From positions 20,884 through 84,883 of the forward strand of contig JAFSNY010000080.1 of assembly GCA_017447305.1 (NCBI GenBank): DNA of 64,000 nucleotides. The letters are read 5' to 3'. Both the position numbers and the translations under genes were made by a program. Each line of letters starts with the position of its first letter. The first letter of the stretch is position 1. The DNA comes from Bacilli bacterium (GTDB lineage: Bacteria; Bacillota_I; Bacilli_A; RFN20; CAG-826). The notes under the pieces are model-generated. The model had not been told where the DNA came from and made no database searches. It saw only the letters and a program-made list of their open reading frames with translations. Of the stretch, positions 1 through 30,275 are shown piece by piece.

Positions 1-341
1 AGAAAATTGGAACAAGCACTCCACCAATTAAAACAAGTGATGGCTGGTTAGTCCTTTATCATGGAGTGTCTACTAAAGATGATGCTTACCGTGTTGGAGC
101 GATTCTTCTCGATTTAAAAGATCCTTCCAAGATTCTTGCGAGAACTAAAGATTTCTTAATGGAACCTGAAGAAGAATATGAGACGAATGGCTATTATAAC
201 GGATGTGTCTTCCCAACCGCGACTGTTCCTAAAGATGGTGATTTATACATCTACTATGGCGCGGGAGATAAAGTTATCTGCTTAGCGACATGTAAAGAAA
301 ATGAACTTCTTAAATATTTAAAGGAGGAATGCCATGAATAA
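1..341 (+). CDS. GH130 family glycoside hydrolase / beta-mannoside phosphorylase, C-terminal part. The gene starts upstream of the window, and the frame is open from nt 3.
   Basis: The translation from nt 3 (KIGTSTPPIKTSDGWLVLYHGVSTKDDAYRVGAILLDLKDPSKILART...IYYGAGDKVICLATCKENELL) matches the conserved C-terminal blade of GH130 phosphorylases. It is in frame with the listed ORF 66..341. Confidence 0.7.
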   Translation, partial: KIGTSTPPIKTSDGWLVLYHGVSTKDDAYRVGAILLDLKDPSKILARTKDFLMEPEEEYETNGYYNGCVFPTATVPKDGDLYIYYGAGDKVICLATCKENELLKYLKEECHE

Positions 342-1623
342 AAAGATTAAATTATTCGTCACCGCAGGATTAATCCTTTCTTCTGTTTCTTTGCTTTCTG
401 TCAAAAGTAATAAAACAGGAATTAAAGCGGTGGAAGGAGAATTATATTACGTTGATTTCTTCAATAATTATTTAAGAGAAGAATTCACTCTTTCTAGTGG
501 GTTTACAGGTCGAGGCAATAATGTCATCTATAAGACCGTTCAAGTCACCAAAGACTCCTTAGTGGATAAGCCAGAAGATCCAACAAGAAGAAATTATGAA
601 TTCCAAGGCTGGTATAAAGAAGAAGCTTGCTTAGAAGCGTGGAACTTTGATACTGACAAGGTCATTAAAAACACGAGAATCTTTGCCAAATGGGGAATCT
701 CTAGCAAAGAAGAGATGGTGGAACCAGAATATACACCTCCATCCACGGTGTTAGAAGAAAGTGCGGAAACTGAATATGTTCTTAATTCCGTTATGAACTT
801 TGTTCCTAATGATTTAGATCAAGTTAAGCTTCCAACAGCAGCATTAGAAAAACTCGAAGCTAATAAAAACGACGTTCTTCCACTAATGGAATATAAAGTC
901 AAAGCTAGCAAGAGCATAACTGCGACATATAACAACAATAAAATCACCATTACATGTGGCGATGAGGAGAGAGTTCTTCAAGTCAAAGATGATAGTGAAA
1001 ACTTAACTCTTTCAACTTCTTCTTATGAAACCAAAGCCAAGAATTATGAGAAAAAGGCTCTAGAAGAAGAAAGCTATCACGTCATGCTTGCTGGATCTTC
1101 CTCAATTGAATTCTGGGAATCTTCTAAAGAAGACTTAGCCCCAATCGTTAGCTATAACCACGGTATTGGTGGCACGACGATTGAAGAATGGGATGAAAAA
1201 CTCAATGCGAGACTTGTTCTCCCATATAAACCAAAGATGGTTGTTTATTACGTTGGTATTAATAACGTTATTAACTCCAAGCAAGATAAAGACACCATTT
1301 GGACAAATCTTAAGAAGTTCTTAGATGACACTCATGAGAGTCTTCCAGACACCAAGGTTCAATATATCTTGATGAATTTAATTCCTAACTACACAAGTTA
1401 TTTCGATACGATTAACGCCGTTAATGATCAAGTCATCGAATATCAAAAGAGCAATGAATCATGGTTGACTCTCATTAATCCAGGACTAGCTTTAGTCAAA
1501 GAAAACGGAGTTCCTAACGCGGCATACTTTAGAACCGATGGTCTCCATCTTTCCTATTACGGATATGTCGTTTGGGGAGAAATCGTTAAAGAATCAATCC
1601 TTAACGGACTTGAGAATATGTAA
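334..1623 (+). CDS. Secreted SGNH/GDSL-family hydrolase, a probable carbohydrate esterase, with an N-terminal signal peptide and a Listeria/Bacteroides-type repeat.
   Basis: The N-terminus MNKKIKLFVTAGLILSSVSLLS looks like a signal peptide. The C-terminal half carries SGNH motifs (MLAGSSS..., GGT, DGLHLS). YEFQGWYKEE...W resembles the Flg_new/InlB-B repeat. The start overlaps the GH130 stop. Confidence 0.7.
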   Translation: MNKKIKLFVTAGLILSSVSLLSVKSNKTGIKAVEGELYYVDFFNNYLREEFTLSSGFTGRGNNVIYKTVQVTKDSLVDKPEDPTRRNYEFQGWYKEEACLEAWNFDTDKVIKNTRIFAKWGISSKEEMVEPEYTPPSTVLEESAETEYVLNSVMNFVPNDLDQVKLPTAALEKLEANKNDVLPLMEYKVKASKSITATYNNNKITITCGDEERVLQVKDDSENLTLSTSSYETKAKNYEKKALEEESYHVMLAGSSSIEFWESSKEDLAPIVSYNHGIGGTTIEEWDEKLNARLVLPYKPKMVVYYVGINNVINSKQDKDTIWTNLKKFLDDTHESLPDTKVQYILMNLIPNYTSYFDTINAVNDQVIEYQKSNESWLTLINPGLALVKENGVPNAAYFRTDGLHLSYYGYVVWGEIVKESILNGLENM

Positions 1624-1625
1624 TT

Positions 1626-2114
1626 ATGTTTTATAGCGTCGATGTGAGTGATGAGTATAAGAAAGCTAAATCTAAATTCCTTAGACATTCTTTAATCTTC
1701 TCACTCATCTTCGCTTTAATCATCATCGGTGATGTCTTACTTGTTTACTTCGCAAGTGAAGACTTCACAGTTAATCTTATTATTTCCATTATTCTCACCA
1801 TTATCTTTGCGTGGGGCGCTATCTATTACTTCGTGAATGTATATGGTGAGATTAATACGAGATATCGTTTCTTCAAAGGTTTTGAAAGCGGAATCAAACC
1901 AATTGAAGAAATTGTATTTCTAAAAAAAGAAGATGAACTCCATTACGTTAACGGATTATATGTTTATCGCTTATACGTTAAATATATTGAAAACCTTAAC
2001 GAAAAAGAGAAAATCATCTATACCTTAGAGCCGAATCTAAAGTATGAAAATGGTGATAAATTAACAATTACCACCTATCAGAGAATCCTTATTCAAGCGG
2101 AGAAACATTCATGA
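1626..2114 (+). CDS. Hypothetical 2-TM membrane protein
   Basis: ORF with two hydrophobic helices (LIFSLIFALIIIGDVLLVYF; LIISIILTIIFAWGAIYYF). It is translationally coupled to its neighbours. Confidence 0.5.
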   Translation: MFYSVDVSDEYKKAKSKFLRHSLIFSLIFALIIIGDVLLVYFASEDFTVNLIISIILTIIFAWGAIYYFVNVYGEINTRYRFFKGFESGIKPIEEIVFLKKEDELHYVNGLYVYRLYVKYIENLNEKEKIIYTLEPNLKYENGDKLTITTYQRILIQAEKHS

Positions 2115-2710
2115 ATACGCTTAGAAAAGAAAGGATTAAGGCCGCATTTAAATATACTTGGCCGTTCTACATTATTTCCGCATTAATCATTGGGTTTGGT
2201 TTAAATTTCATTTTCTCCATTACCCATAAAACACCAGCGTATAAGACTTTAACGGTATTTGTTTCTGGTATTGTTAAAGATCTTAAAGCCTTCAAAAAAG
2301 ACACTCTTGCTAAATATGAGGACAAGGAACTAAAAAGTGTCACTTATATTGAAGCGGATCCATCAGAAGGCACTTATTATACGAAACTATCTGTCGCTGG
2401 TTATAGTTCCGCGGATGTCTTAATCATTCCAGTGTCAAAACTGGAGAATCTCAATCTCTCTGCTTTCGCTTTAGAACTTGAAGATTCGTTAATCAACGAG
2501 TACTGTCCAGGATATACATTCTATAAACAAGAAGAGATTAATTATGGAATTAAACTCGATAAGTCGATAATTGAGGAATATGTCTATTTACCTAGTGAAG
2601 ATTGCTATATGTTCTTAAATGCAACAAGCGTTAATCTTGGTGAATATTCAAAGAAACAAATTAAAGAACACGATGTAGCCTTATGTGTCGCTAAAGACTG
2701 GGGGATGTAA
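2111..2710 (+). CDS. Hypothetical single-TM membrane-anchored protein
   Basis: It has one N-terminal TM (WPFYIISALIIGFGLNFIF). ATGA start/stop overlaps occur with the flanking ORFs. Confidence 0.5.
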   Translation: MNTLRKERIKAAFKYTWPFYIISALIIGFGLNFIFSITHKTPAYKTLTVFVSGIVKDLKAFKKDTLAKYEDKELKSVTYIEADPSEGTYYTKLSVAGYSSADVLIIPVSKLENLNLSAFALELEDSLINEYCPGYTFYKQEEINYGIKLDKSIIEEYVYLPSEDCYMFLNATSVNLGEYSKKQIKEHDVALCVAKDWGM

Positions 2711-3588
2711 TGTTTAAAAGAAAAGAAGAAAAACACATCACAGACAAAGACGTTATGAGAACTCTTCCGCACACTAGAAGAGAAGTGTTTTTCGATTTGC
2801 TTAAACACAGAAAGATGAGTTTATTTGCTTTATCTTGTTTTACCTTCATGTTTTTTATTCCTCTTGCAGTGGATTTAATCTTCTTTAACTTCTTACAAAA
2901 CGTCGCAATTGCGAGTGATAAGACGGACTATTTATTCTCCCTATTTTTCTATGAAATGATTATTTTGATTCCATGTATGGTCATCGGATGTTTGGGGCTT
3001 GCTGGGGCCTTTGAAGTGGCAAAAAACATGGTTTGGCAAGAAGGGACAATGCTCGCGAGTGATTTCTTCCATGGAATTAAGACAACATGGCTTCACGCGT
3101 TGACAAATGGACTAATTCTTGGAGTGATTCTTTCCGCGGGTGTTATTGGCAGTTGTTTCTTACTTATATACCAGCCAGTAAGTTCAATTATCATTGGTGT
3201 TGGAATGGGTGCGATGATTCTCTTCTTCCTATTCTTTGGAATGGCGATTGTGATGAATTACACTCAAGATGCCTATTACCAAAACTCTTATGGAGCGATT
3301 TTAAAAAACTCCTTCCGCTTCATGGGATTATTAAACTGGAGATTACTCGTAATCTTCCTTCTATCTACAGGAGTTGTTGTCACCCTTTGTTTCTTCAATA
3401 TGGTGACATTAATTATCGGAATGGCGTTATTTGCAGTTCTTAATAGTGTAGTGGTTATTCTCTACACCTTAGTGTCCCATTCCGCCTTTGATAAATACAT
3501 TAATATGGATAATTACCCCCACTTGGTCGGAAGGGGTTTATATAAAGTCGAAGATAACGACGAAATAAATAAAGACAAGGAGGCCTAG
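2710..3588 (+). CDS. DUF624/YesL-like polytopic membrane protein
   Basis: There are about 6 TM helices. The N-terminal region (REVFFDLLKHRKMSLFALSCFTFMFFIPLAVDL) is reminiscent of the YesL family, which is often found beside sugar ABC transporters. Its start overlaps the upstream stop by 1 nt. Confidence 0.5.
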   Translation: MFKRKEEKHITDKDVMRTLPHTRREVFFDLLKHRKMSLFALSCFTFMFFIPLAVDLIFFNFLQNVAIASDKTDYLFSLFFYEMIILIPCMVIGCLGLAGAFEVAKNMVWQEGTMLASDFFHGIKTTWLHALTNGLILGVILSAGVIGSCFLLIYQPVSSIIIGVGMGAMILFFLFFGMAIVMNYTQDAYYQNSYGAILKNSFRFMGLLNWRLLVIFLLSTGVVVTLCFFNMVTLIIGMALFAVLNSVVVILYTLVSHSAFDKYINMDNYPHLVGRGLYKVEDNDEINKDKEA

Positions 3589-3592
3589 TTTT

Positions 3593-5476
3593 ATGGCAGA
3601 TGTAACACTACGACATGTTTACAAAGTATATGATGGAGGCGTAAGAGCGGTTAACGACTTTGATCTTGATATTAAAGACAAGGAATTCGTTGTTTTCGTT
3701 GGTCCATCTGGATGTGGTAAATCCACAACTTTAAGGATGATCGCTGGACTTGAAGAAATTACCGCTGGTCAATTATTTATTGATGGTGAATTAATGAATG
3801 AGGTTGAACCAAAAAATAGAGATATCGCGATGGTATTCCAAAGCTACGCTCTATATCCTCATATGACCGTCTATGAAAACATGGCCTTTGGATTAAAACT
3901 AAGACATACACCCAAAGATGAAATCGACCGTCGTGTTAAAGCCGCTGCAGAGATTTTGGAAATTTCCGAACTTCTTTCACGTAAGCCAAAAGCCCTTTCT
4001 GGTGGTCAAAGACAACGTGTTGCTTTAGGTAGAACGATCGTTCGTAATCCAAAAGTCTTCCTTCTTGATGAACCTTTATCTAACTTAGACGCGAAATTAC
4101 GTGTTTCAATGAGAAGTGAAATTACTAAACTCCATGAAAAACTTGAAACGACCTTTATTTATGTTACTCACGACCAAACCGAAGCGATGACGATGGGGAA
4201 TCGTATTGTCGTTATGAAAGATGGATTTATTCAACAAGCTGACACTCCTATCACCTTATTTGAAGATCCATGTAACTTATTTGTCGCGACCTTCCTTGGC
4301 TCTCCTCAAATGAATATTATCGACGCTGAATTATTCATGGATGGAAAAACCCTTAAGGCCAAACTTAATGACTGTGATGATTTAATCGTTTCTTTCCCTG
4401 ATATTAAGGCGAAACAACTCGCTGATAAGAAATATATTGGCGGTAAAGTCCTCTTAGGTATTAGACCAGAACACGTTAGACCTAACGCTGGTAATTTAAA
4501 GACCTATGTCGATGTTGTTGAACATTTAGGAGATGAATCCATCCTTTACACAAAGATGGAAAATAGAAAAGATCAATTCATCATCAAGATGCCATTTAAT
4601 TCGAAGATTCATGCGAATGAGAGCATCAGTGTTGAATTTAATATGGATCATGTTTATTTATTCGACTGCGACACTCATAAAGCGATTATGGGTATCCCAA
4701 ATGAAGATGAAATTCCAGTTACCATTCATAAGAATATGATAACGATAGGGGAACAAGAACTTACTCTTTCTGACGAATTTGTTTCTCACCTTCTCGATAG
4801 CGCATTCGACAAAGAAGTCCACCTTGCGATTAAACCAGATTATGTGACACTTGAAGAAGTTCCTAATTCCTTAAAGATTGAAGCTAAATTAGAATTTGTT
4901 GAACAAAAGACAGACTACCAAGCTTTATATTTCTCCATAAAAGGAATTGAAGGTTACTTTGCGATGAAAATAAGAAATGAAGAACAAATTAAACTTGGAA
5001 GCAAAGTTAATCTCTATCTCCCATATTTAAGACTCACCGTTTATGATGAAGACCACAACAAAGCCTTCTCAAGAGAAGTAGTGCATGAGAATCGTGGTGT
5101 TGCTAATGTCGTTAATAAGAATGGTATGACCATTATTAGAGTCGGCGATTCGACACTTGCTTATCCAGATAATGGTCAATATCCTGATGGTCAATATGAC
5201 ATTATCTTTAAACAAGATAAGTTAATGACAATCTTCTCCAAAAAACTTCTTAAGAAGGGTTATGAGAATCCAGAAATGGATGAACCTCGTAACAGAATCA
5301 AAGTCTCAGCGTATGACGAAGATGTCCTTGGCGATAAGCTTCTTACTTATGTTGAAGTCAAAGGATTTGATAATTATGCATCATTTGTTGTGAACAACAA
5401 TTTCTCCGTTTATAAGATGCCTAAATTTGAATTATTTGTCCCTGCTGATGGATTTATCTTAGAACCAAGAAACTAA
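3593..5476 (+). CDS. MalK/MsmX/UgpC-type sugar ABC transporter ATP-binding protein, with a ~260-aa C-terminal extension (additional TOBE-like repeats).
   Basis: Walker A GPSGCGKST; Q-loop; signature LSGGQRQRVALGR; Walker B FLLDEPLSNLD; H-loop VTHDQ. The canonical MalK regulatory domain ends near aa ~365, and a further ~260 aa follows. Confidence 0.9.
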   Translation: MADVTLRHVYKVYDGGVRAVNDFDLDIKDKEFVVFVGPSGCGKSTTLRMIAGLEEITAGQLFIDGELMNEVEPKNRDIAMVFQSYALYPHMTVYENMAFGLKLRHTPKDEIDRRVKAAAEILEISELLSRKPKALSGGQRQRVALGRTIVRNPKVFLLDEPLSNLDAKLRVSMRSEITKLHEKLETTFIYVTHDQTEAMTMGNRIVVMKDGFIQQADTPITLFEDPCNLFVATFLGSPQMNIIDAELFMDGKTLKAKLNDCDDLIVSFPDIKAKQLADKKYIGGKVLLGIRPEHVRPNAGNLKTYVDVVEHLGDESILYTKMENRKDQFIIKMPFNSKIHANESISVEFNMDHVYLFDCDTHKAIMGIPNEDEIPVTIHKNMITIGEQELTLSDEFVSHLLDSAFDKEVHLAIKPDYVTLEEVPNSLKIEAKLEFVEQKTDYQALYFSIKGIEGYFAMKIRNEEQIKLGSKVNLYLPYLRLTVYDEDHNKAFSREVVHENRGVANVVNKNGMTIIRVGDSTLAYPDNGQYPDGQYDIIFKQDKLMTIFSKKLLKKGYENPEMDEPRNRIKVSAYDEDVLGDKLLTYVEVKGFDNYASFVVNNNFSVYKMPKFELFVPADGFILEPRN

Positions 5477-5478
5477 TC

Positions 5479-6215
5479 CATGAAAAAAGATTTTAATCAT
5501 AATTACTATAAAGATTTATATCTAGACATGTTTCTTCCTGAACAAGAAGAGTTTTTTTACCATCATTCATTTTCATGGTGGTGGATTAGTTGAAGGGGAT
5601 AAGGGAGACGCTCATTTATTTTGCGAACATCTATGCAAGCTTGGTTATGCGGTAGTGAGTGCGAATTATAGTCTAATGCCTAAAGCCAAGTTTCCTGATT
5701 ATTTATATGATGCGGCGAATGCGGTTAAATATGTCATGGATAACATATCTAAGCATGGTAAATCGAGAGGATTTATTATCTCTGGCCAATCCGCGGGAGC
5801 GTGGATCACGTTAATGCTTTGCTTTAATAAAGATTATTTAGAATCTGTTGGTATTAACACCAAGATGATATGTGGCTGGGTGAGTGACGCTGCGCAAACG
5901 ACGAGTCATTTTAACATCTTAAAGATTGAAAAGGATCTTCATCCATGGATTCAAAGAATCGATGAATGTGCTCCTCTATATTATGTTAATGAGAAGACCA
6001 CATTTTCTCGTTTATTACTCCTTGCTTATGAAAACGATTTACCAAACCGTATTGAACAAAACCAATTATTACTATCAACAATAAAGTCGTTTGATAAGGA
6101 CGCTGATGTAGAATTCAAAATACTTAAAGGAAATCACTGTCAAGGCAGTTCAACACTTGACTCTGATGGAGAATTTGAAGTTGTAAAAATCATGGAAGTA
6201 TGGTTGGATAAATAG
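5479..6215 (+). pseudogene. Alpha/beta-hydrolase (esterase/lipase, HGGG type) interrupted by a +1 frameshift in a T7 homopolymer.
   Basis: ATG at 5479 gives MKKDFNHNYYKDLYLDMFLPEQEEFF and then a stop. The +1 frame continues ...TIIHFHGGGLVEGDKGDAHLF...GQSAGAW (oxyanion HGGG plus the GxSxG nucleophile elbow). Deleting one T from gagttttttta (~5543-5553) fuses both into a single ORF. Confidence 0.65.
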
Positions 6216-15925: not shown

Positions 15926-16038
15926 GTAAAATAATCCATCTATTAATTAATTGAAGAAAAACTGGTGCTTCCTCACCAGTTTTCTTCATATAATCTAAAA
16001 GATTATGCTATATTATATTTGTGGTTTGGAGGAAGCGT

Positions 16039-17473
16039 TATGAAGAGATTCATTAAAGCATTAACAATACCATTTGTTTTAGGAGCGACATTGTCCTTTT
16101 TTGTTGATTTTGAAAGTAAAGAATTTGTTATCGCTCAAGCTAGTGGCGCGCTTCCCACAACAATATCGTTAAGAGATAATACAGAAACAGAAATTAGGAA
16201 TTATTACAATAACCTTAATTCTCTTGCTGAAAGTGAACTTCAAGGTACAAATCTCTTAAAGAACTTAAAACCAATCCTTTCTAATAACCAAAGAATGTAT
16301 TCATATGATAGAAATAATGGTACAGAAATTTGGCAGTTATATGAAATCATTGATCGCGATTGGGAACTATCTCCTGCAAATGAGATAACCACTGGCACAT
16401 ATGATGAATCGACAAAAACGATTACTGGATATACATATGGAAAAAGCGCCAGTAATCCAGGAGATAATCCATATGTCAGAGCGCTTTATGTTGATCGCTC
16501 AGTAGAAAATCCGATGAAAGCTTGGGGCAACCACAATCAAACATATGGAGGAATCAATAGAGAGCACATATGGCCGAAATCGCATGGTTTTGATGAAGAA
16601 TTAAGTGATTCTGACGGAGCTAGGGGAGACCCAATGCATCTTTGGGCCGCAGATGGATATACCAATAATATTCATAATAATTATTTCTATGGGTATGTTG
16701 ATACTTCAAAAACTTATGTCGACTGCCAAGACAAGATTTCTTATTCCGTGGGCAATTATCTCGGAACATCGAAAACATTAGGAAAAGGCACAGTTTTTGA
16801 ACCTCAAGACTCAGATAAAGGCGATATCGCTCGTGCAGTATTCTACATGGTTGCAAGATATAACAACTACGCAGGCGCAACATCTGGAATTGACGCGAAC
16901 GAGCCAAACCTCATTTTAGAAAATAATCTAGATGGGAATAATGTCACTGGAACATCGACGGCGACCACATCGTTCAGCCTAGGTATTCTTCAAGACTTAC
17001 TTGAATGGAATAAATTAGATCCTGTTGATGACTTTGAAATCCATCGTAATAACTTATTATTCAATAACTATACATTTAATAGAAACCCGTTCATTGATTT
17101 CCCAGAATGGGCAGATTACATTTGGGGAACATCAGAAAATGGTGTTTATGACAACACTAGTAAGGGATTTGCTTCCCCATTAACCGACCCTATAAGCCAA
17201 AACCCATCACCTGAGCCTGGCACTAAAGACGAATCAACTACATCAGAATCAGAAAGCGAGTCAATTGTTCCAATACCAGAACCTCAAGATGAATCACCTA
17301 AATTTGATATGAAAATGATTATCATTATTGGTGCGGTCGTTGTGGCGGTCGTTATCATTTTGATTGTCATCTTTGCTAACGCAAGCAAAAAACAAAAAAA
17401 GAAAATGGTGAAGAGCGCAAAGAAGATTGTTAAAAAATCCTCTTCAAAAAAGAAGAGTTCAAGTAAAAAGTAA
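16039..17473 (+). CDS. Extracellular Endonuclease-I family nuclease with a signal peptide and a C-terminal TM anchor plus a Lys-rich tail
   Basis: REHIWPKSHGF, GDPMHLWAADGYTNNIHNNYFYG and FNRNPFIDFPEWADYIW match the Endonuclease I (EndA/Vvn) motifs. C-terminal IIIIGAVVVAVVIILIVIF is followed by KKQKKK.... The start is preceded by a ggagg RBS. Confidence 0.75.
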
Positions 17474-18238: not shown

Positions 18239-20059
18239 ATGAAAGTAGTGTCAATTTATAAAAAACATCTACCTGCGATGATCTTTGGCCCAATGTTAAA
18301 AATAGTGGAGGCTTTTTTTGATTTGCTTATCCCCCTATTCATGAAGGCTATTATCGATCTCCAAAACTATGCGGTTATCGATGATTTTCCAAATAAGTTA
18401 ACAGGATATATTGCTAAATTTATTAGGAGTTTTAGTCCTTGGGTAAGTGATCGCGCTTTAAGCGATGCGTTGATTGGCGGAACATTCATTTTAGCGATGG
18501 GAATTGTTGGATTCTTAATCACGATGGTTTCACAGTTTATCGCCGCCATTACCTGCGTGAAAGTTGGAACTGAGATTAGAAATACAGCCTATCTCCATAC
18601 GATGAAATTATCTAAACGAGAAAGAGAAAAGATTGGGAATGATAGAATTAACACCATTCTTAATAACGATACTTATCAGGTTCAACAAGGAGTCCTTATT
18701 TTTGTTCGATTAATCATAAGAGCACCTTTAGTCCTTATTGGTGCATTAGTCTTTTCCTTTATTCTTAATGTTTCAATCGGATTTATCTTTGTTATGATTG
18801 TTCCAATCATTTCAGTAATCGTTGTTTTTGTAATGTATCGTTCTTCTAATGCATACACAAGGATCCAAGGAGAAGTAGATAACGTTTCTAGTTATACAAG
18901 AGATGCATTACTTGGTAATAAAGTCATTCATGCCTTTGATAAGAAAGAGGAAGAATCCTCCGAATTTAAAAAAGTTAATAATTCTTATAAATATAGAGCG
19001 ATGAACGCAGTGAGGATTACTTCTTTAGTCAATCCTTTAACATTTGCAATTATCTCTCTAGCGATGATTATGGTTGTCTTCTTTGGCGGAACACCGATGT
19101 TTGATAATCCTGACGCTAGTGCGCTTGCTTCAACCATTATGGCGGAAGTTCAATATCTTGGACAAATTCTCTTTGTTGTTATGCAGTTAAGCAACGTTGT
19201 TTTAATCTTCACTAAAGCGAGAGTGTCACGTCATCGTATTGATTCTCTTCTCATGATTAATCCATCAATTATCGATGATGAAAAAGCGTTAACAAAAGAG
19301 ATAAATAACGGGGAATGTCTATATTCTTTTAATGATGTTTCTTATAAATATGAGGAAAATGGTAACGCGGCAATTAGCAAAATTACTTTTGATATAAAGA
19401 AGGGTCAATCAATTGGATTTATCGGTGGAACCGGATCTGGTAAATCAACATTAATATCTTTATTTAATCGTCTTGATGATATCAGTGATGGAAAGCTTTT
19501 ATATAAAGGAATGGATATTAAAGAATATCGATTAAAGAAACTAAGGGATGAAGTTGGTGTTGTTTCTCAAAAAGCCACTTTATTTAATGGCACAATAAAA
19601 TCTAATTTACAAATTGGAAGGTTCGATGCGAGTGAAGATGAAATGATTCACGCTTTAACTATATCCGATGCATATGAATTTGTTTCTAAATATGACGATG
19701 GAATTAATCATGAAGTAGTGGACCAAGGAAAGAACTATTCTGGCGGCCAAAGACAAAGATTATCCATCGCAAGAGCGTTACTTAAAAAAAGAGAAGTTAT
19801 CATCTTTGATGATTCAACCTCCGCATTAGATTTATTAACGGAAAAAAGAGTGAGAGAAAATATCGATAAAGAATATCAAGATATGACAAAGATTATCGTC
19901 TCTCAACGTATTTCCTCAGTGATGAATTGTGACGAGATTTATTTGTTAAATAAAGGACAAATAATCGCTAGGGGAAGTCACAACGAATTATTAAAGTTAT
20001 CTCCTGTGTATAAAGAGATTTACGAAAGCCAAATCGCTAAGGAGGGTGCTTCATTATGA
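18239..20059 (+). CDS. ABC exporter, fused permease-ATPase, subunit 1 of a heterodimeric pair
   Basis: 6-TM domain followed by Walker A GGTGSGKST, signature YSGGQRQRLSIARA and Walker B IIFDDSTSALD. Confidence 0.9.
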   Translation: MKVVSIYKKHLPAMIFGPMLKIVEAFFDLLIPLFMKAIIDLQNYAVIDDFPNKLTGYIAKFIRSFSPWVSDRALSDALIGGTFILAMGIVGFLITMVSQFIAAITCVKVGTEIRNTAYLHTMKLSKREREKIGNDRINTILNNDTYQVQQGVLIFVRLIIRAPLVLIGALVFSFILNVSIGFIFVMIVPIISVIVVFVMYRSSNAYTRIQGEVDNVSSYTRDALLGNKVIHAFDKKEEESSEFKKVNNSYKYRAMNAVRITSLVNPLTFAIISLAMIMVVFFGGTPMFDNPDASALASTIMAEVQYLGQILFVVMQLSNVVLIFTKARVSRHRIDSLLMINPSIIDDEKALTKEINNGECLYSFNDVSYKYEENGNAAISKITFDIKKGQSIGFIGGTGSGKSTLISLFNRLDDISDGKLLYKGMDIKEYRLKKLRDEVGVVSQKATLFNGTIKSNLQIGRFDASEDEMIHALTISDAYEFVSKYDDGINHEVVDQGKNYSGGQRQRLSIARALLKKREVIIFDDSTSALDLLTEKRVRENIDKEYQDMTKIIVSQRISSVMNCDEIYLLNKGQIIARGSHNELLKLSPVYKEIYESQIAKEGASL

Positions 20060-21786
20060 ACAAAGCCTTCTTAAAGCGTTATGTATTCATCTACAAGAAA
20101 GACATCGCTCTTATTTGTCTTTTCGTTGTTTTATTCCTAATCTCTCAACTATCCCAGCCATTCATTATTGGTAACATGCTCGACCACGCTTTGATGAACG
20201 ACAAGCAAACATTCGTCATTGAGATGGTTGTTTTAGCGACATTATCTCTTGTTGGAGTATTTTCTAACTTTGCCTTTGAATATTTATCTGGTGTGATTAC
20301 ACAAAAGGTTATTTATCAAGTTAGAGAAGATATATTTAGAAAATATAATTCCATTTCTATTGAGAAAATGAATCAATATTCATTAGGTGATTTATTACAA
20401 CTTGAAATTAATGATATGGAAAATGTTTCAAATGGAATATTTGCCTTATTTAAATCATTCTTAGAAGGAATAATTGCGATTTTAGTCACAATTATCATCA
20501 TGCTTTATATCAACTGGCTACTTGCTTTAGGTGTCATTCTTCTCACCCCATTAAGCGTTATTATGTCTCGCTTTGTTGGTAAATTCTCGCATACATATTT
20601 CAAGAAACAGAGTAAACTCCAAGCTGAACTTAATTCCATCTCAGTGGAAGCTATCTCTAATGGTGATATTCTCAGTTCATTTAACTATGAAGAAGAAAGC
20701 ATTAAGAAATACATCGCTAAGGATGAAGAATTATCAAAAGAAGCGAAAATCGCACAGTTTTCTGCCTCTTGGATCAATCCATCCACTCGTTTAGTTAATA
20801 ATACGATTTATGCAATTATCGGTATCGCAGGAATCATCATGATTTCATATTCATCAAATAATGTTTTAATCTCACTACTTGCGATAATGAGTGTTGGAAA
20901 ACTTTCATCCTTCCTCTCATATACATCTCAATATTCCAAACCATTTAATGATATTTCTTCGATTATTGGAGAATATGAAGCAATGAAGGCTTCAATTGAT
21001 AGAATGATGAAATTCTTAAATGAAGAAGATGATGTTGATGAAGGTGATAAAACACTCAATAATCTATCATCTATTATCTTTGATAATGTTTCATTCTCTT
21101 ATGATAAGAACAAAACACTAATCGAAGGATTTAACACTAATATTTCATCTGGCATGAAAGTTGCGATTGTTGGGCCAACAGGCGCGGGCAAGACCACTCT
21201 TATCAACCTATTGATGAGATTCTATGATCCTGATTCTGGAATCATCAAATATAACGATATCAATGGAAAAGAAATTAAAAAGTCTTCTTTAAGAAGTAAT
21301 TTTGGTATGGTTCTTCAAGAGACATGGATATTTAAGGGGACGATTTTAGAAAACGTCCGTTATGCGAAAAGAAATGCTACTAACCAAAAAGTTATCGAAG
21401 CGTGTCAACGCGCGCATTTGGACGAATTTGTTTCTTCCTTACCACAAGGATATGAAACAGTTATTTCTTCAAACGACGGTTTATCCGAAGGACAAAGACA
21501 AATGATCTCTATCGCAAGAGTGATGCTCGCTAATCCAAGCATTATTCTTTTAGATGAAGCAACTAGTAACGTTGATACAAGAACAGAGAAATTAATTATC
21601 AATTCCTTCGACAATATGACCAAGGGCAAAACATCAATTGTCATCGCTCATCGATTATCAACGATCGTTAACGCTGATATGATTCTTGTTTTGAAAGATG
21701 GTAATGTCATTGAACAAGGAAATCACGAACAACTACTTAAGAAAAAAGGTTTCTACTATTCAATGTACATTTCCCAGTTTAAATAG
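20056..21786 (+). CDS. ABC exporter, fused permease-ATPase, subunit 2 of a heterodimeric pair
   Basis: Walker A GPTGAGKTT, signature LSEGQRQMISIARV and Walker B ILLDEATSNVD. It overlaps the upstream gene by 4 nt. Confidence 0.9.
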   Translation: MNKAFLKRYVFIYKKDIALICLFVVLFLISQLSQPFIIGNMLDHALMNDKQTFVIEMVVLATLSLVGVFSNFAFEYLSGVITQKVIYQVREDIFRKYNSISIEKMNQYSLGDLLQLEINDMENVSNGIFALFKSFLEGIIAILVTIIIMLYINWLLALGVILLTPLSVIMSRFVGKFSHTYFKKQSKLQAELNSISVEAISNGDILSSFNYEEESIKKYIAKDEELSKEAKIAQFSASWINPSTRLVNNTIYAIIGIAGIIMISYSSNNVLISLLAIMSVGKLSSFLSYTSQYSKPFNDISSIIGEYEAMKASIDRMMKFLNEEDDVDEGDKTLNNLSSIIFDNVSFSYDKNKTLIEGFNTNISSGMKVAIVGPTGAGKTTLINLLMRFYDPDSGIIKYNDINGKEIKKSSLRSNFGMVLQETWIFKGTILENVRYAKRNATNQKVIEACQRAHLDEFVSSLPQGYETVISSNDGLSEGQRQMISIARVMLANPSIILLDEATSNVDTRTEKLIINSFDNMTKGKTSIVIAHRLSTIVNADMILVLKDGNVIEQGNHEQLLKKKGFYYSMYISQFK

Positions 21787-26707: not shown

Positions 26708-28498
26708 ATGATTTTTAACAAATACATCAACAAATACTACCTCAAATACATATTGTTCTTCGCAATAGGTGTTTTTGCTTTGATTATGGTGGATATCGTT
26801 CAAACACAGATTCCAAAGTTTTTAGGGCAAATTGTTGATAATATTGACGCTCTTTCAAATGATATGAGTGAACTATGGAAAATCATCAGAATGATGATGC
26901 TTTACACTGGCTTGATGTTTGTTGGAAGAGTCGCGTGGAGATTATCAATTTTCCGCGCAAGTACAGGAATTGAAGCTAATCTTCGTAAGGAAATGTTTGA
27001 AAAATCAGAGAGATTACCAACCTCTTTCTACCATGACACGAAAGTAGGAACGATTATGTCGTGGTTCACTAATGATATTGAAACCATTGGTGAATTCTAT
27101 GGATGGGGAACAATCATGCTGGTTGATGCTTTCTTCCTCTCTGTTATCGTTGTCGTTCAAATGATTATGAACGTTGATATTTATTTAACACTTATTGCTT
27201 TAGCGCCAATTCTGTTAATTGTTATCTGGGGCGCTCTTGTAGAAAAATACATGTCAATCAAATGGGAAGAAAGACAAAAAGCCTATGATGATTTATATGA
27301 CTTCGCTCAAGAAAACTTCACTGGTATTAGAGTTATCAAAGCTTTCGTTAAAGAAACAAAAGAAATTCATGCTTTTGCTAAAGTTGCTAAGAGAAATAAA
27401 GACGTCAATATTACTTTCGCTAGAGTCTCAATTCTTTTCGATGTTTTAATCGAATTAATTATCGCTATAGAATTTGCTTGTATCTTAGGTTTCGGTGGAT
27501 GGTTTGCTTTTAATTTTGCAATGGGAACTCCTGTTCTTATTTGGGGTCACCAAGTTGATTTAAGTATTGGTAAATTAATGGAATTCGTTGGATATATCGA
27601 TATCTTAATTTGGCCAATGATTGCTTTGGGTCAAATTGTCACAATGCGTTCAAGAGCGAAAACATCACTTAAACGTATCGCAAACTTCTTAGACACTCCA
27701 GAAGATGTTAAGAGTCCGAAAGACGCGATAGTATTACAAAATGTTAAAGGTAAAATTACCTTCAATCATTTCTCATTTAAATATCCAAGCAATGAATACG
27801 ATTCATTGACCGATGTTTCCTTAACAATTAATCCTGGTGAAAAGGTTGGTATTGTCGGGAAGATTGGCTGCGGTAAAACAACATTAGTCAATTCCTTATT
27901 ACGTTTATATAACATTGAAGAGAACACTATTCTCATCGACGATGTTGATTTGATGAAATGTGACATCACTTCATTAAGACAAAATATTGCATACGCTCCT
28001 CAAGATAATTTCTTATTCTCAGATAAAATTACCAACAATATTGGATTCTCATCTTCAGATCCAAGTGAAGAAGATGTTATTGAGGCCGCTAAATTTGCGG
28101 ATGTTCATGATAATATCGTTGAATTCCCTGATGGCTATAACACTGTGTCTGGTGAAAGAGGCGTCACCCTTTCTGGTGGACAAAAGCAAAGAATATCTAT
28201 TGCACGTGCTTACTTTAAGAAAGCACCAATCCTTATATTAGATGACTCTGTTAGTGCGGTTGATGTCAAAACAGAGGAAGTAATTCTCAAAAATATTATG
28301 GAGAAACGTCAAGGATTAACAACTTTAGTTGTTGCGTCCCGCGTTTCCACCATTATGCATATGGATAAAATCATCGTTTTAAACGAAGGTAAACTTGAAG
28401 CTTTTGGAACCCATAAAGAGCTTTTAGAAACCTCTGAAGTTTATAACAGAATGGTCTATCTCCAAGAACTCGAAGCTGAAGTGGAGGGAGGTAAGTAA
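26708..28498 (+). CDS. ABC exporter, fused permease-ATPase, subunit 1 of the second heterodimeric pair
   Basis: TM domain; Walker A GKIGCGKTT; signature LSGGQKQRISIARA; Walker B LILDDSVSAVD. Confidence 0.9.
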   Translation: MIFNKYINKYYLKYILFFAIGVFALIMVDIVQTQIPKFLGQIVDNIDALSNDMSELWKIIRMMMLYTGLMFVGRVAWRLSIFRASTGIEANLRKEMFEKSERLPTSFYHDTKVGTIMSWFTNDIETIGEFYGWGTIMLVDAFFLSVIVVVQMIMNVDIYLTLIALAPILLIVIWGALVEKYMSIKWEERQKAYDDLYDFAQENFTGIRVIKAFVKETKEIHAFAKVAKRNKDVNITFARVSILFDVLIELIIAIEFACILGFGGWFAFNFAMGTPVLIWGHQVDLSIGKLMEFVGYIDILIWPMIALGQIVTMRSRAKTSLKRIANFLDTPEDVKSPKDAIVLQNVKGKITFNHFSFKYPSNEYDSLTDVSLTINPGEKVGIVGKIGCGKTTLVNSLLRLYNIEENTILIDDVDLMKCDITSLRQNIAYAPQDNFLFSDKITNNIGFSSSDPSEEDVIEAAKFADVHDNIVEFPDGYNTVSGERGVTLSGGQKQRISIARAYFKKAPILILDDSVSAVDVKTEEVILKNIMEKRQGLTTLVVASRVSTIMHMDKIIVLNEGKLEAFGTHKELLETSEVYNRMVYLQELEAEVEGGK

Positions 28499-28499
28499 T

Positions 28500-30275
28500 A
28501 TGGCGCAAGCGCAAGACTTAGATAAATTACGTGGCGATCATAAAATGAAACTTTCCCAAATCTTAAAGAGATCTTGGAAGTATGTAAAAAAAGAAGTGTG
28601 GTGGTTGCTTCTTTCCTTATTCTTCATCACTGTCTGTGTTGGTATTGATGTTGTTTTACCAAGATTAACTATGTTATTTGTCGATTATTTCGATGCCTTA
28701 ACGGCGAATTCAACATTCTCCATCCTTTTAGGAATTGTTATTGGCTATATTGGGTTATCACTTGCAAACCAAGTAATCATGTATTTCCAATCAATGATTC
28801 TTCAAAAAGCAGGCCAAAGAATTGTCTACGCTTTAAGAATGGAAGTGTTTGAGCATATTGAAAGAATGTCACAAAACCAATTCAATGAAATGCCGGTTGG
28901 TTCATTAGTGACTCGTGTTGCCAACTATACTGCGTCAATGAGTGATTTATTCACTGATGTTTTAGTTATTCTCATCAGAGACTTCTTAACTGCGGTTATC
29001 GTCTTTATCATCATGCTCTTCCTATCAATAAAATTATCATTATTCCTTCTCGCGTTTACTCTCGTCGCAGGAGTCATTTCTTATGTCTTCGGGCATATCG
29101 TTGGAAAGATTTTTAGACGCGAAAGACAATATATTTCTGACTTAAATACTTTCTTAAGTGAGAATTTATCAGGTATGAAAATCATCCAAGTTTTCAACCA
29201 AGAAAGACGTAAACAAAAAGAGTTTGATGAAAAGAACTGGAGACTTAGAAGAGCGAGATATAACGTTATCATGGCCTTTGCTTTCTATCGACCAACGATT
29301 AATCTTCTTTACTATGGATCGATCGCGACAACATTCGGTGTTGGCTTATCGCTTTCACTTACCAGTGCGGAAATCGTTGGATTCTATTTATATTTATCTA
29401 AATTCTTTAACCCAATTCAAAACATCGCCGACCAAGTTAATAAGATTCAAAGAGCGATTACAGCTTGTGAAAGATTATATAATCTTATGGATGTCGCTCC
29501 TGAAGTATTAGATAAGGAAGATGCGATTGAAATCGAACACTTCAAAGGCAAAATCGAATTTAAAAATGTTTGGTTTGCTTATGAAGAAGAAAACTGGATT
29601 TTAAAAGATGTTTCCTTTGTCATTAATCCAAAAGAAACTGTAGCGTTTGTTGGTGCGACAGGCGCGGGGAAGACAACGATTTTATCGTTGATTGTTAGAA
29701 ACTATGAGATTCAAAAAGGTCAAATCCTCATCGATGATGTAGATATTACCCATATTAAAGTTGAATCAATTAGAAAGTCAGTGGGGCAAATGCTTCAAGA
29801 TGTTTTCCTCTTCTCAGGAAATATCCGTAATAACATCACCTTGCATGATGATGATATTAGCGATGAACAAATTAACGCTGCGTGCGATTATGTCAACGCC
29901 TCTCATTTCATCAATACTCTTCCAAATAAACTTGATGAAGAAGTAATTGAAAGAGGAGAGAACTTCTCTGCTGGCCAAAGACAATTGCTTAGCTTTGCTA
30001 GATGTGTTGTCCATTCTCCAGAAATCTTGATTCTTGACGAAGCCACCGCGAATATTGACACTGAAACCGAAGTTGTTATTCAAGACTCATTAGAGAAGAT
30101 TAAAAACATTGGAACAATGCTAGTGGTCGCACACCGTTTATCAACAATTCAGCATTCCGACAATATCATTGTTTTACAAAACGGAGAAATAATTGAACAA
30201 GGTAATCACCAACAATTATTAAAGAAGCGCGGTCATTACTATAAACTTTATCAACTACAGTTCGAAGATAAATAA
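28500..30275 (+). CDS. ABC exporter, fused permease-ATPase, subunit 2 of the second heterodimeric pair
   Basis: Walker A GATGAGKTT; signature FSAGQRQLLSFARC; Walker B LILDEATANID. Confidence 0.9.
   Translation: MAQAQDLDKLRGDHKMKLSQILKRSWKYVKKEVWWLLLSLFFITVCVGIDVVLPRLTMLFVDYFDALTANSTFSILLGIVIGYIGLSLANQVIMYFQSMILQKAGQRIVYALRMEVFEHIERMSQNQFNEMPVGSLVTRVANYTASMSDLFTDVLVILIRDFLTAVIVFIIMLFLSIKLSLFLLAFTLVAGVISYVFGHIVGKIFRRERQYISDLNTFLSENLSGMKIIQVFNQERRKQKEFDEKNWRLRRARYNVIMAFAFYRPTINLLYYGSIATTFGVGLSLSLTSAEIVGFYLYLSKFFNPIQNIADQVNKIQRAITACERLYNLMDVAPEVLDKEDAIEIEHFKGKIEFKNVWFAYEEENWILKDVSFVINPKETVAFVGATGAGKTTILSLIVRNYEIQKGQILIDDVDITHIKVESIRKSVGQMLQDVFLFSGNIRNNITLHDDDISDEQINAACDYVNASHFINTLPNKLDEEVIERGENFSAGQRQLLSFARCVVHSPEILILDEATANIDTETEVVIQDSLEKIKNIGTMLVVAHRLSTIQHSDNIIVLQNGEIIEQGNHQQLLKKRGHYYKLYQLQFEDK

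Follow-up and report, generated by a model that had tools for sequence, protein, structure and literature searches.

The C-terminal ~260 amino acids of a 627-aa MsmX/UgpC-type ABC-importer ATPase, encoded in the 64,000-nt stretch of Bacilli DNA analysed here (the window), are two additional MalK-type regulatory domains (RDs). The protein has the architecture NBD-RD1-RD2-RD3, in which the nucleotide-binding domain (NBD) and a canonical RD1 have been extended by tandem duplication. MalK/MsmX-type ATPases are the textbook model of how ABC importers are powered and how they are switched off post-translationally, and to our knowledge all characterised members carry one regulatory domain. Literature searches turned up no earlier description of ATPases of this type with TOBE or regulatory domains in tandem or in several copies. 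The long ATPases are labelled simply "UgpC" by annotation pipelines, which leaves 40% of each of them unannotated. By analogy with known RDs, and with a probability of roughly one half, we propose that RD2-RD3 may form an extra tethered docking/regulatory tier that would control closure of the ATPase via one or more protein partners.

Results

The ATPase gene lies at positions 3593..5476 of the forward strand as one uninterrupted ORF which, according to the ORF listing, starts with ATG and stops with TAA at 5474–5476. A ribosome-binding site AAGGAGG (3577..3583, + strand) can be read in the sequence 9 nt before the ATG, where it overlaps the 3' end of the preceding gene, and since no promoter-like site was seen directly 5' of the ORF and no terminator-like site after its stop, the gene is placed inside an operon. 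A near-identical 627-aa orthologue comes from another metagenome (P0126/L038). The NBD (aa 1–235; 3593..4297, +) matches Pfam ABC_tran at aa 21–162 (E=2.8e-33) and has all its motifs intact, namely Walker A (GPSGCGKST), the Q-loop, the signature (LSGGQRQR), Walker B (VFLLDEPLS) and the H-loop (YVTHDQ); among orthologues its identity is ~95% and its dN/dS 0.00–0.06. With the NCBIfam model of the UgpC subfamily (NF008653), which covers aa 1–365, the protein scores 488.3 bits and exceeds the cut-off of 432, whereas with the MalK equivalog model (NF008233) it reaches 438 bits and stays below the cut-off of 568, making it a member of the UgpC subfamily and not a MalK equivalog. These sequence features identify it as an MsmX/UgpC-type nucleotide-binding subunit that is catalytically competent and belongs to a type-I (CUT1) sugar ABC importer, and judged from orthologous operons its partners are probably two BPD_transp_1 permeases and a solute-binding protein.

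RD1 (aa 236–367; 4298..4693, +) is the canonical MalK/MsmX regulatory domain with Pfam matches to OB_MalK (236–295, E=6e-11) and TOBE_2 (288–357, E=2e-8). In a Foldseek search its best match was MsmX 6yir (E=5e-7, 30% identity), the further top matches being MalK-type structures, and its boundaries agree with those of the MsmX regulatory domain, residues 236–365 (PMC7658222). An earlier inspection of the letters alone (the sequence-only reading) had let the canonical part end at this point, in line with the ends of the TOBE_2 match at 357 and of the UgpC model at 365. It had also given a typical length of ~365–375 aa for such proteins, and solved MalK/MsmX-type chains indeed have 362–406 residues as deposited, tags counted. 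With 627 aa and three RDs, compared to about 360–380 aa and a single RD in the canonical form, the ATPase is classed as a variant. Its extension, which had been noticed at 4690–5476, comprises aa 368–627 (nt 4694–5473).

RD2 (aa 368–497; 4694..5083, +) is a second full-length RD copy according to profile searches against the PDB, hhalign, the UgpC HMM and pLDDT. Positions 1–126 of its profile A3 align to residues 235–367 of Clo1313_2554 from Clostridium thermocellum (PDB 7X0Q, E=8e-9), and further matches were obtained to the 'multitask' CUT1 ATPase MsmX from Bacillus subtilis (PDB 6YIR, E=3e-7) and to the RD of E. coli MalK (residues 234–360, E=2e-3). The alignments span the solved RDs from end to end. 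Clo1313_2554 and MsmX have the NBD and a MalK-type RD in common with the ATPase described here, but MsmX has one RD in 365 aa, in contrast to three RDs (four in some lineages) in 627 aa. A comparison of RD1 with RD2 by hhalign gave 88% (E=2.9e-6), and the UgpC HMM also detects the extension alone (E=0.0017). At the level of its sequence RD2 is a duplicate of the whole MalK/MsmX regulatory domain; at its start the hinge motif recurs (MGIPNEDE, cf. LGSPQMN), having been duplicated together with the domain.

RD3 (aa 498–627; 5084..5473, +) is a third RD copy recognisable by fold alone, as hhalign showed no significant match to either RD1 or RD2 and its sequence profile found no match in the PDB. 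Both RD2 and RD3 are predicted to fold with pLDDT >90, and in the predicted models both adopt a double beta-barrel fold superimposable on known RDs. The best structural match of RD3 is ModC from Methanosarcina acetivorans (PDB 3D31), which shares its fold at only 15% sequence identity. Pfam returned no family for the extension alone, with neither RD2 nor RD3 being found by TOBE_2 or OB_MalK, and the evidence for both domains comes from profile–profile, PDB-profile and fold comparison. The sequence-only reading had described two TOBE-like repeats and suggested TOBE_2 as a check, which gave no match in the extension. Both segments are present, but each makes up the C-terminal half of one complete RD (OB_MalK-like plus TOBE-like) and not a lone TOBE domain, and the expected similarity to TOBE/MOP folds was found for RD2 by sequence and fold and for RD3 by fold. 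Solved chains align to one RD of the model at most, the longest alignment comprising 128 of 392 residues. In the di-Mop proteins ModE/ModG (PDB 1H9R, 1B9M, 1H9J) two tandem Mop units correspond to one RD and not to an RD1-RD2-RD3 array, and unlike the ATPase these oxyanion-binding proteins are without an ABC domain. Nucleic-acid binding, as might be considered for OB-like domains, is unlikely given the acidic pI of RD2 (4.8) and RD3 (5.4).

An artefactual origin of the 627-aa ORF, be it through mis-assembly, a missed stop or the joining of msmX to a downstream stand-alone TOBE-domain gene, can almost certainly be dismissed. One metagenome contig (L020) has the ATPase orthologue called as two genes, but this split is due to one in-frame TGA in the NBD signature (LSGGQ*QR), far from the domain boundaries. 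Many database matches are short, but all of them begin at an internal Met in RD1 or RD2 and are fragments; a stand-alone RD2-RD3 gene was not found among them. Of the 19 species-level genomes, all have a single long ORF except one that is cut by a contig end (18 of 19), and among the best 120 protein clusters found with NBD+RD1 as query 118 are 616–639 aa long and the other two are fragments. The near-identical independent contig mentioned above, a composition that is even across the junction and purifying selection on both extra domains also argue against an artefact. Recurrence as a single ORF and the fragment nature of the short matches lead us to reject the fusion or missed stop that the sequence-only reading had named as its own refutation.

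The extension is conserved in every orthologue and the three-RD architecture persists in homologues with just 22–35% identity in the extension. The lineage of long ATPases is conserved and abundant in uncultured rumen/gut Bacilli and Erysipelotrichia, with >100 protein clusters and 19 species genomes. This breadth was obtained from an exhaustive phmmer search and the NBD+RD1 query, as word-indexed searches with the extension, using a single sequence or a 13-sequence profile, captured the family very incompletely and gave neither distant nor named members. In some sister lineages a further duplication of RD2 has led to four RDs in 747–788 aa, the additional insert being an RD2 copy (hhalign 99.5%, E=3e-22), and large acidic or coiled-coil inserts are found in variable loops of L017, P0029 and P0042. 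The invariant motifs of RD2/RD3, EFVEQKTDYQAVYFS and the RD3 family motifs SAYDEDVLG and NNFSVYKMPKF, are rich in aromatic and acidic/polar residues, apparently of surface type and kept down to 25–35% overall identity. Purifying selection acts on the extension with dN/dS of 0.06–0.34 (0.06–0.23 for RD2), and RD2 and RD3 evolve faster than RD1. Their faster evolution could also be explained by a relaxed constraint on a mainly structural appendage, a point to be held against the docking function discussed below. Between the ATPase and its nearest orthologue the NBD is 100% identical and RD3 82%, a difference that made us consider positive or diversifying selection on RD3; with an omega of 0.22 this was rejected.

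The ATPase gene is the final transporter gene in a mannan/beta-mannoside utilisation operon. In the window this operon starts with the 3' end of a GH130 (beta-mannoside phosphorylase family) gene (1..341, +), whose L006 orthologue matches Glyco_hydro_130 (E=3.7e-57), followed by a lipoprotein with Flg_new and GDSL esterase matches in Pfam (334..1623, +), which belongs to the same operon and is syntenic in all related loci. The next three genes encode membrane proteins. Two of them are conserved operon members of no known family, namely mem162 (1626..2114, +; 2-TM with a ~90-aa C-terminal soluble domain) and mem199 (2111..2710, +; single-TM with a ~165-aa extracytoplasmic domain), for which family searches gave scattered weak sub-threshold matches and no consistent family. 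The third, mem292 (2710..3588, +), has 5–6 TM segments in a TM scan, ends 4 nt before the ATPase gene and is probably a divergent DUF624/YesL-like protein: 3 of its 13 orthologues match Pfam DUF624 (PF04854, best E=2e-4), the window copy being without a match, and its profile finds no relative in the PDB. N- and C-terminal motifs are conserved in the mem292 family. A BD-FAE/alpha-beta-hydrolase esterase gene (5480..6215, +) starts 3 nt after the ATPase stop.

The remaining genes of the operon lie upstream of window position 1, and the permeases and the solute-binding protein are thereby outside the window. Both are present in the ATPase operon in L029, L026 and L032, with the full operon visible in L029. 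The orthologous order is a LacI regulator, GH130, two BPD_transp_1 permeases, a ~530-aa SBP_bac_8-like solute-binding lipoprotein and two lipoproteins, and then a second GH130, the GDSL esterase, the three membrane proteins, the ATPase, esterases, PMI and PMM; synteny at the ATPase locus holds across L001–L022. In this lineage the ATPase is located inside a complete transporter and glycan-utilisation operon and is not an orphan shared ATPase, in contrast to msmX, which is an orphan gene. L036 and L037, which are the most distant of the long homologues, are orphans like msmX and have no mem292 neighbour, whereas in the fructan locus L035 a mem292 homologue (HMM E=6e-78) is found directly upstream of the long ATPase. 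An obligatory association of the extension with the mannan cassette or the trio of membrane proteins was rejected, as L035 has the mem292 homologue only and L036/L037 are orphans.

Discussion

If RD2-RD3 act as a docking/regulatory tier, NBD-RD1 would keep its normal role, with two copies docking on the permease pair and RD1 forming the usual base of the NBD dimer, and RD2-RD3 would hang off RD1 into the cytoplasm by a flexible linker of ~10 residues. We derive this tethered appendage from the predicted three-domain model, in which the putative RD1-RD2 linker HKAIMGIPNE (~aa 361–370; 4673..4702, +; model residues 126–135) is the sole internal segment with pLDDT <50, while both extra domains are confidently folded and the short RD2-RD3 junction has a predicted pLDDT of at least 82. 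RD2-RD3 could then bind one or more protein partners, by analogy with the ancestral RD of MalK, which binds EIIA-Glc (inducer exclusion) and MalT (sequestration) (PMC11466899; PMC10710835). E. coli MalK (PDB 1Q12, 2R6G) belongs to the same domain family, has a single RD and is the precedent for an RD as transport-regulating docking platform, and the RD has been described as regulatory and as the most variable part of such NBDs (PMC7658222). Partner binding might either restrain the NBD closure required for ATP hydrolysis or sequester a regulator, with the outcome that sugar uptake would be coupled to the carbon status of the cell. The partner might be a PTS/HPr-type signal protein, a transcription factor or the co-transcribed membrane protein of YesL type, and the count of RD modules, 3 or 4, would determine how many inputs are received or their valency. 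An integration of several inhibitory inputs by the repeats, as suggested by the sequence-only reading, is plausible.

In favour of docking, the pair of mem292 and ATPase genes recurs in the fructan locus and hence with a different substrate. The orphans L036/L037 without a mem292 neighbour speak against it, as does the best structural match of RD3, ModC, whose RD binds a small molecule and not a protein. We regard it as quite unlikely that RD2-RD3 serves specifically for docking of the co-transcribed YesL/DUF624-like or another operon-encoded membrane protein. In mannan and fructan loci alike, a YesL/DUF624-like gene is found directly before that of the long ATPase, but the canonical MsmX with its one RD functions together with YesL-containing loci in B. 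subtilis, so a YesL-like partner alone does not require extra RDs. DUF624/YesL is a family of long-standing unknown function, and a literature search for it found nothing relevant.

The ModC match also brings in a small-molecule sensor. ModC and E. coli MetN control NBD closure through a C-terminal domain that lies below the NBD, a documented mechanism (PMC10710835), and MetN uses a different fold for it, a C2 domain of NIL fold (PMC11466899). ModC has one RD with molybdate/tungstate bound at the RD dimer interface, and RD2 and/or RD3 might similarly mediate trans-inhibition, with a ligand such as the imported manno-oligosaccharide, mannose-1-phosphate or a general carbon-status metabolite at an RD-RD interface locking the NBDs apart. 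The invariant RD2/RD3 motifs would fit a binding site of this kind, since their aromatic and acidic/polar composition is common at sugar-binding sites. We nevertheless consider a sensor unlikely: by its sequence RD2 derives from the MalK/MsmX RD, for which we know of protein partners only and of no small-molecule ligands, and the same architecture occurs in mannan loci, one fructan locus and orphan genes, which makes a substrate-specific ligand unlikely and would call for a general metabolite.

Doubtful, too, is a purely structural stalk, in which RD2 and RD3 would homodimerise like RD1 and add dimerisation tiers without any signal input, keeping the two ATPase subunits paired when away from the membrane or lengthening the complex. 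The C-terminal domains are a known dimerisation element and promote NBD dimers in crystals (PMC7658222), the copy number changes between 3 and 4 without other changes, the loops tolerate the large inserts described above, and the fast evolution of RD2 and RD3 compared to RD1 would suit a stalk as well. However, conservation of their motifs in distant homologues and the low dN/dS of the extension argue for a constraint more specific than that of a spacer, and canonical MsmX serves many transporters without a stalk and even crystallises as a monomer (PMC7658222).

Should the extra RDs take regulatory inputs, as in the docking/regulatory tier that we favour, they would represent an unexplored layer of control over the uptake of plant polysaccharides (mannan, fructan) in the rumen and a natural system for studying how RD-mediated gating scales with domain number. 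The consistent pairing of the long ATPase with a YesL/DUF624-like gene could also help to assign a function to the DUF624 family. If docking to the membrane protein proved true, the two proteins would form a previously unrecognised accessory/regulatory sub-complex of CUT1 importers and give the first functional handle on DUF624, and RD copy number (3 or 4) would tune multi-input control of sugar uptake in rumen Bacilli.

Two minor observations concern the 3' part of the locus. Compared with the nearest orthologue dS rises toward the 3' end of the ATPase gene, which points to mosaicism or recombination. In the window the reading frame of the esterase gene that follows is interrupted at a T7 run (5552–5558) by a +1 frameshift; in L038, L006 and L001 this gene is intact with 244 aa.

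Results and Discussion

The long ATPase is encoded by an uninterrupted ORF with an ATG start (3593..5476, + strand, 627 aa) preceded by the ribosome-binding site AAGGAGG (3577-3583) within the end of the preceding gene. Base composition is even throughout the gene and no terminator-like site was found 3' of its stop codon. Pfam assigns ABC_tran (aa 21-162), OB_MalK (aa 236-295) and TOBE_2 (aa 288-357), and aa 1-365 match the NCBIfam UgpC subfamily model with 488 bits at a cut-off of 432, while the protein falls short of the NCBIfam MalK equivalog threshold. All catalytic motifs were intact in a motif check and the nucleotide-binding domain (NBD) is competent. From this coverage, the end of the canonical protein falls at about aa 367, as the sequence-only reading had it, and Pfam gave no match to the ~260 residues beyond. 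Solved chains of the family comprise 362-406 residues as deposited, and the regulatory domain (RD) of MsmX spans residues 236-365 (PMC7658222). In every feature tested, the long ATPase belongs with the MsmX/UgpC CUT1 ATPases; the one exception is its architecture, since canonical members of this subfamily have a single RD.

For the analysis of the extension we defined three C-terminal units, RD1 (aa 236-367), RD2 (aa 368-497) and RD3 (aa 498-627). Profile-profile comparison of the RD1 and RD2 orthologue alignments gave 88% probability (E=2.9e-6), and the UgpC HMM matched the extension alone with E=0.0017, covering the C-terminal region of the model. We also built a profile (A3) from 13 divergent extensions, and it aligns with the whole regulatory domain of MsmX-type ATPases of known structure, namely 7x0q (A3 positions 1-126 to residues 235-367, E=8e-9), MsmX 6yir (E=3e-7) and E. 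coli MalK (E=2e-3), with further matches to 2d62, 1v43 and AlgS, and its alignment begins at the hinge motif (igvPkeN vs IGSPQMN). To judge from these alignments, RD2 is a complete sequence-level duplicate of an RD including the hinge, because A3 aligns over the whole domain from this motif onwards. RD3 of the most divergent homologues keeps a classical TOBE-like motif, '...DADVLGENTIVYAIVDG...IGDKIKFVITPEHITFLD'. RD2 and RD3, the two copies additional to the canonical RD1, are members of the TOBE/Mop-type regulatory fold, which supports the earlier proposal of extra TOBE-like repeats. In the predicted structure the RD1-RD2 linker is flexible and the RD2-RD3 junction has a pLDDT of 82 or higher. 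Di-Mop proteins such as ModE or ModG are equivalent to a single RD rather than to an array of RDs.

Scanning species-representative genomes, we identified 19 loci. Their sources are MAGs of rumen or gut origin that carry the labels Bacilli, Bacillales or Erysipelotrichaceae, plus one 'Bacteroidaceae' contig that is probably mis-binned. The orthologue is a single ORF in 18 of the 19 loci (597-632 aa in 15, 747-788 aa in three), the remaining one being cut by the contig end; the 597-aa orthologue of L007 is without ~30 NBD residues. Among the best 120 clusters found with the NBD+RD1 part as query (identity at least 89%), 118 are 616-639 aa in length, leaving two fragments, and a near-identical 627-aa protein (P0126, on contig L038) comes from an independent assembly. 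An artefactual ORF is rejected by this recurrence, and the C-terminal extension first noticed in the sequence is confirmed as part of an intact and recurrent architecture. Every short database match begins at an internal Met within RD1 or RD2 and is therefore a contig-edge fragment; no stand-alone RD2-RD3 gene was seen among the database matches. At locus L020 (9461-11368) an in-frame TGA replaces the AGA (Arg) codon of the LSGGQRQR signature and the gene was called as two. This split reflects either a pseudogene or an error in sequencing the metagenome contig and does not mark a domain boundary, as the lone TGA sits inside the NBD. The dN/dS ratios were 0.00-0.06 for the NBD, 0.01-0.17 for RD1, 0.06-0.23 for RD2 and 0.065-0.34 for RD3, and the low values of the latter two indicate purifying selection on both extra domains.

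Divergence from the nearest relative (L038) is greatest in RD3 (82% identity vs 100% for the NBD). Nucleotide identity is ~97% in NBD and RD1 and 77-90% across RD3 (window 5033-5473), and dS climbs from 0.18 to 0.47 toward the 3' end of the gene. Together with an omega of 0.22 for RD3, this rise disfavours positive selection on RD3 and suggests that a recombination or mosaic boundary lies within the gene and that faster protein evolution is not the sole cause.

An exhaustive phmmer search with the extension against 1.84 billion representatives yielded 57 clusters at 50% identity bearing it, among them full-length proteins of 611-699 aa with extensions just 22-35% identical to the window copy. 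Sources that name these proteins call them 'UgpC' or 'multiple sugar transport system ATP-binding protein' (e.g., NLN80069.1 from an Erysipelotrichia MAG), and the extra domains are absent from all annotations of the long homologues. Our searches gave no description of multi-RD MalK/MsmX ATPases in the literature, nor any ABC ATPase with three or four tandem RDs among the solved structures and literature searched. The multi-RD ATPase is a real, conserved and unannotated protein, common in rumen metagenomes and made wholly of a known module.

Upstream of the gene, the window carries the 3' end of a GH130 gene, a Flg_new/GDSL esterase gene and three small membrane-protein genes, mem162 (1626-2114, 162 aa, 2-TM), mem199 (2111-2710, 199 aa, 1-TM) and mem292 (2710-3588, 292 aa, 5-6 TM helices), with gaps or overlaps of 1-8 nt; on the other side, the start of a BD-FAE esterase gene lies 3 nt past the ATPase stop. 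This order is common to all related loci of sufficient length, and it also holds for L021 and L022, whose homologues have ~30% extension identity. Sequence further upstream in orthologous loci shows the operon to begin with a LacI-type regulator, GH130, two BPD_transp_1 permeases and a ~530-aa SBP lipoprotein, continuing with two more lipoproteins, a second GH130, a GDSL lipoprotein, the three membrane proteins and the long ATPase, and downstream follow esterases, phosphomannomutase, mannose-6-P isomerase and NUDIX. It is a mannan/beta-mannoside utilisation locus that encodes a complete type-I ABC importer, with the long protein as the ATPase. The extension also occurs outside such loci: the homologue P0067 (L035, 29.5% GC) lies within a GH32 fructan locus and P0070 (L036) and P0118 (L037) are orphan genes, as is B. 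subtilis msmX.

All three membrane-protein genes are present in every mannan-type locus, packed tightly between esterase and ATPase. No known family was matched by mem162 and mem199. Three of 13 mem292 orthologues match PF04854 (best E=2e-4), which marks mem292 as a putative divergent DUF624/YesL-like protein. The fructan locus is without mem162 and mem199 and has a mem292 homologue directly upstream of the long ATPase and overlapping it (L035 9109-10014, HMM E=6e-78); no mem292 homologue lies beside the long ATPase in the orphan loci.

With NBD-RD1 running the normal transport cycle, RD2-RD3 would be an appendage in the cytoplasm with additional capacity for docking or regulation. We tentatively favour protein docking (probability roughly 0.35-0.4), because the MalK/MsmX RD is the direct ancestor of RD2 and is documented to bind regulatory proteins: EIIA-Glc, which blocks the NBD rotations required for hydrolysis, and MalT (PMC11466899; PMC10710835). 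The conserved mem292-ATPase gene pair makes mem292 a candidate partner. Trans-inhibition by a small molecule in the manner of ModC or MetN would fit the resemblance of RD3 to the ModC fold and the aromatic and acidic residues of the conserved motifs, but is rather improbable given that the architecture occurs in loci for different substrates. A purely structural, added dimerisation stalk is similarly doubtful; the tolerance of large inserts and the faster evolution of both domains are consistent with it. Nucleic-acid binding is unlikely as both domains are acidic.

The 747-788-aa variants (L015-L017, P0037, P0007, P0009) have four RDs, the extra one being an RD2 copy (hhalign 99.5%, E=3e-22) located within RD2 (ORFs L015 6906-9149, L016 6906-9149 and L017 6723-9089). 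Tandem duplication is evidently still adding domains in this family. The extra unit of L017 includes a ~40-aa acidic low-complexity insert. In the distant homologues P0053 (561 aa) and P0083 (536 aa) most of the RD1 TOBE half is gone and RD2 and RD3 are kept, so extra RDs can outlast reduction of the canonical one. P0042 (699 aa) and P0029 carry inserts in the variable mid-RD3 loop that comes after the short KKxxKK helix; that of P0042 is helical and coiled-coil-like (~70 aa), that of P0029 acidic and PE-rich. The distant orphan long forms P0077/P0118 (L037 10001-11947) and P0088 from higher-GC genomes show a degenerate Q-loop, signature and H-loop, P0088 having also lost the Walker B glutamate, and keep RD1-RD2-RD3; by their motifs they may be non-catalytic, purely regulatory 'pseudo-ATPases'. 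P0036 (172 aa, on a 2265-nt contig) fuses a GH25 lysozyme-like N-terminus to the C-terminal half of RD3 and is probably a chimeric assembly or truncated rearrangement.

The BD-FAE/alpha-beta-hydrolase esterase gene (window 5480-6215) carries a +1 frameshift in a 7-T run (5552-5558), and with a single T removed the gene encodes a 244-aa protein that is collinear with the intact orthologues in L038, L006 and L001. Either the homopolymer was misread in sequencing, or the gene is a recent pseudogene or a phase variant. Elsewhere in the window, two adjacent half-transporter pairs (ABC_membrane + ABC_tran) at 18239-21786 (606+576 aa) and 26708-30275 (596+591 aa) have the typical layout of heterodimeric ABC exporters and no relation to the long ATPase. 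The 64 kb also hold two Endonuclease_1 nuclease paralogues, one of 502 aa (15965-17473) and one of 774 aa with Big_2 repeats (39985-42309).
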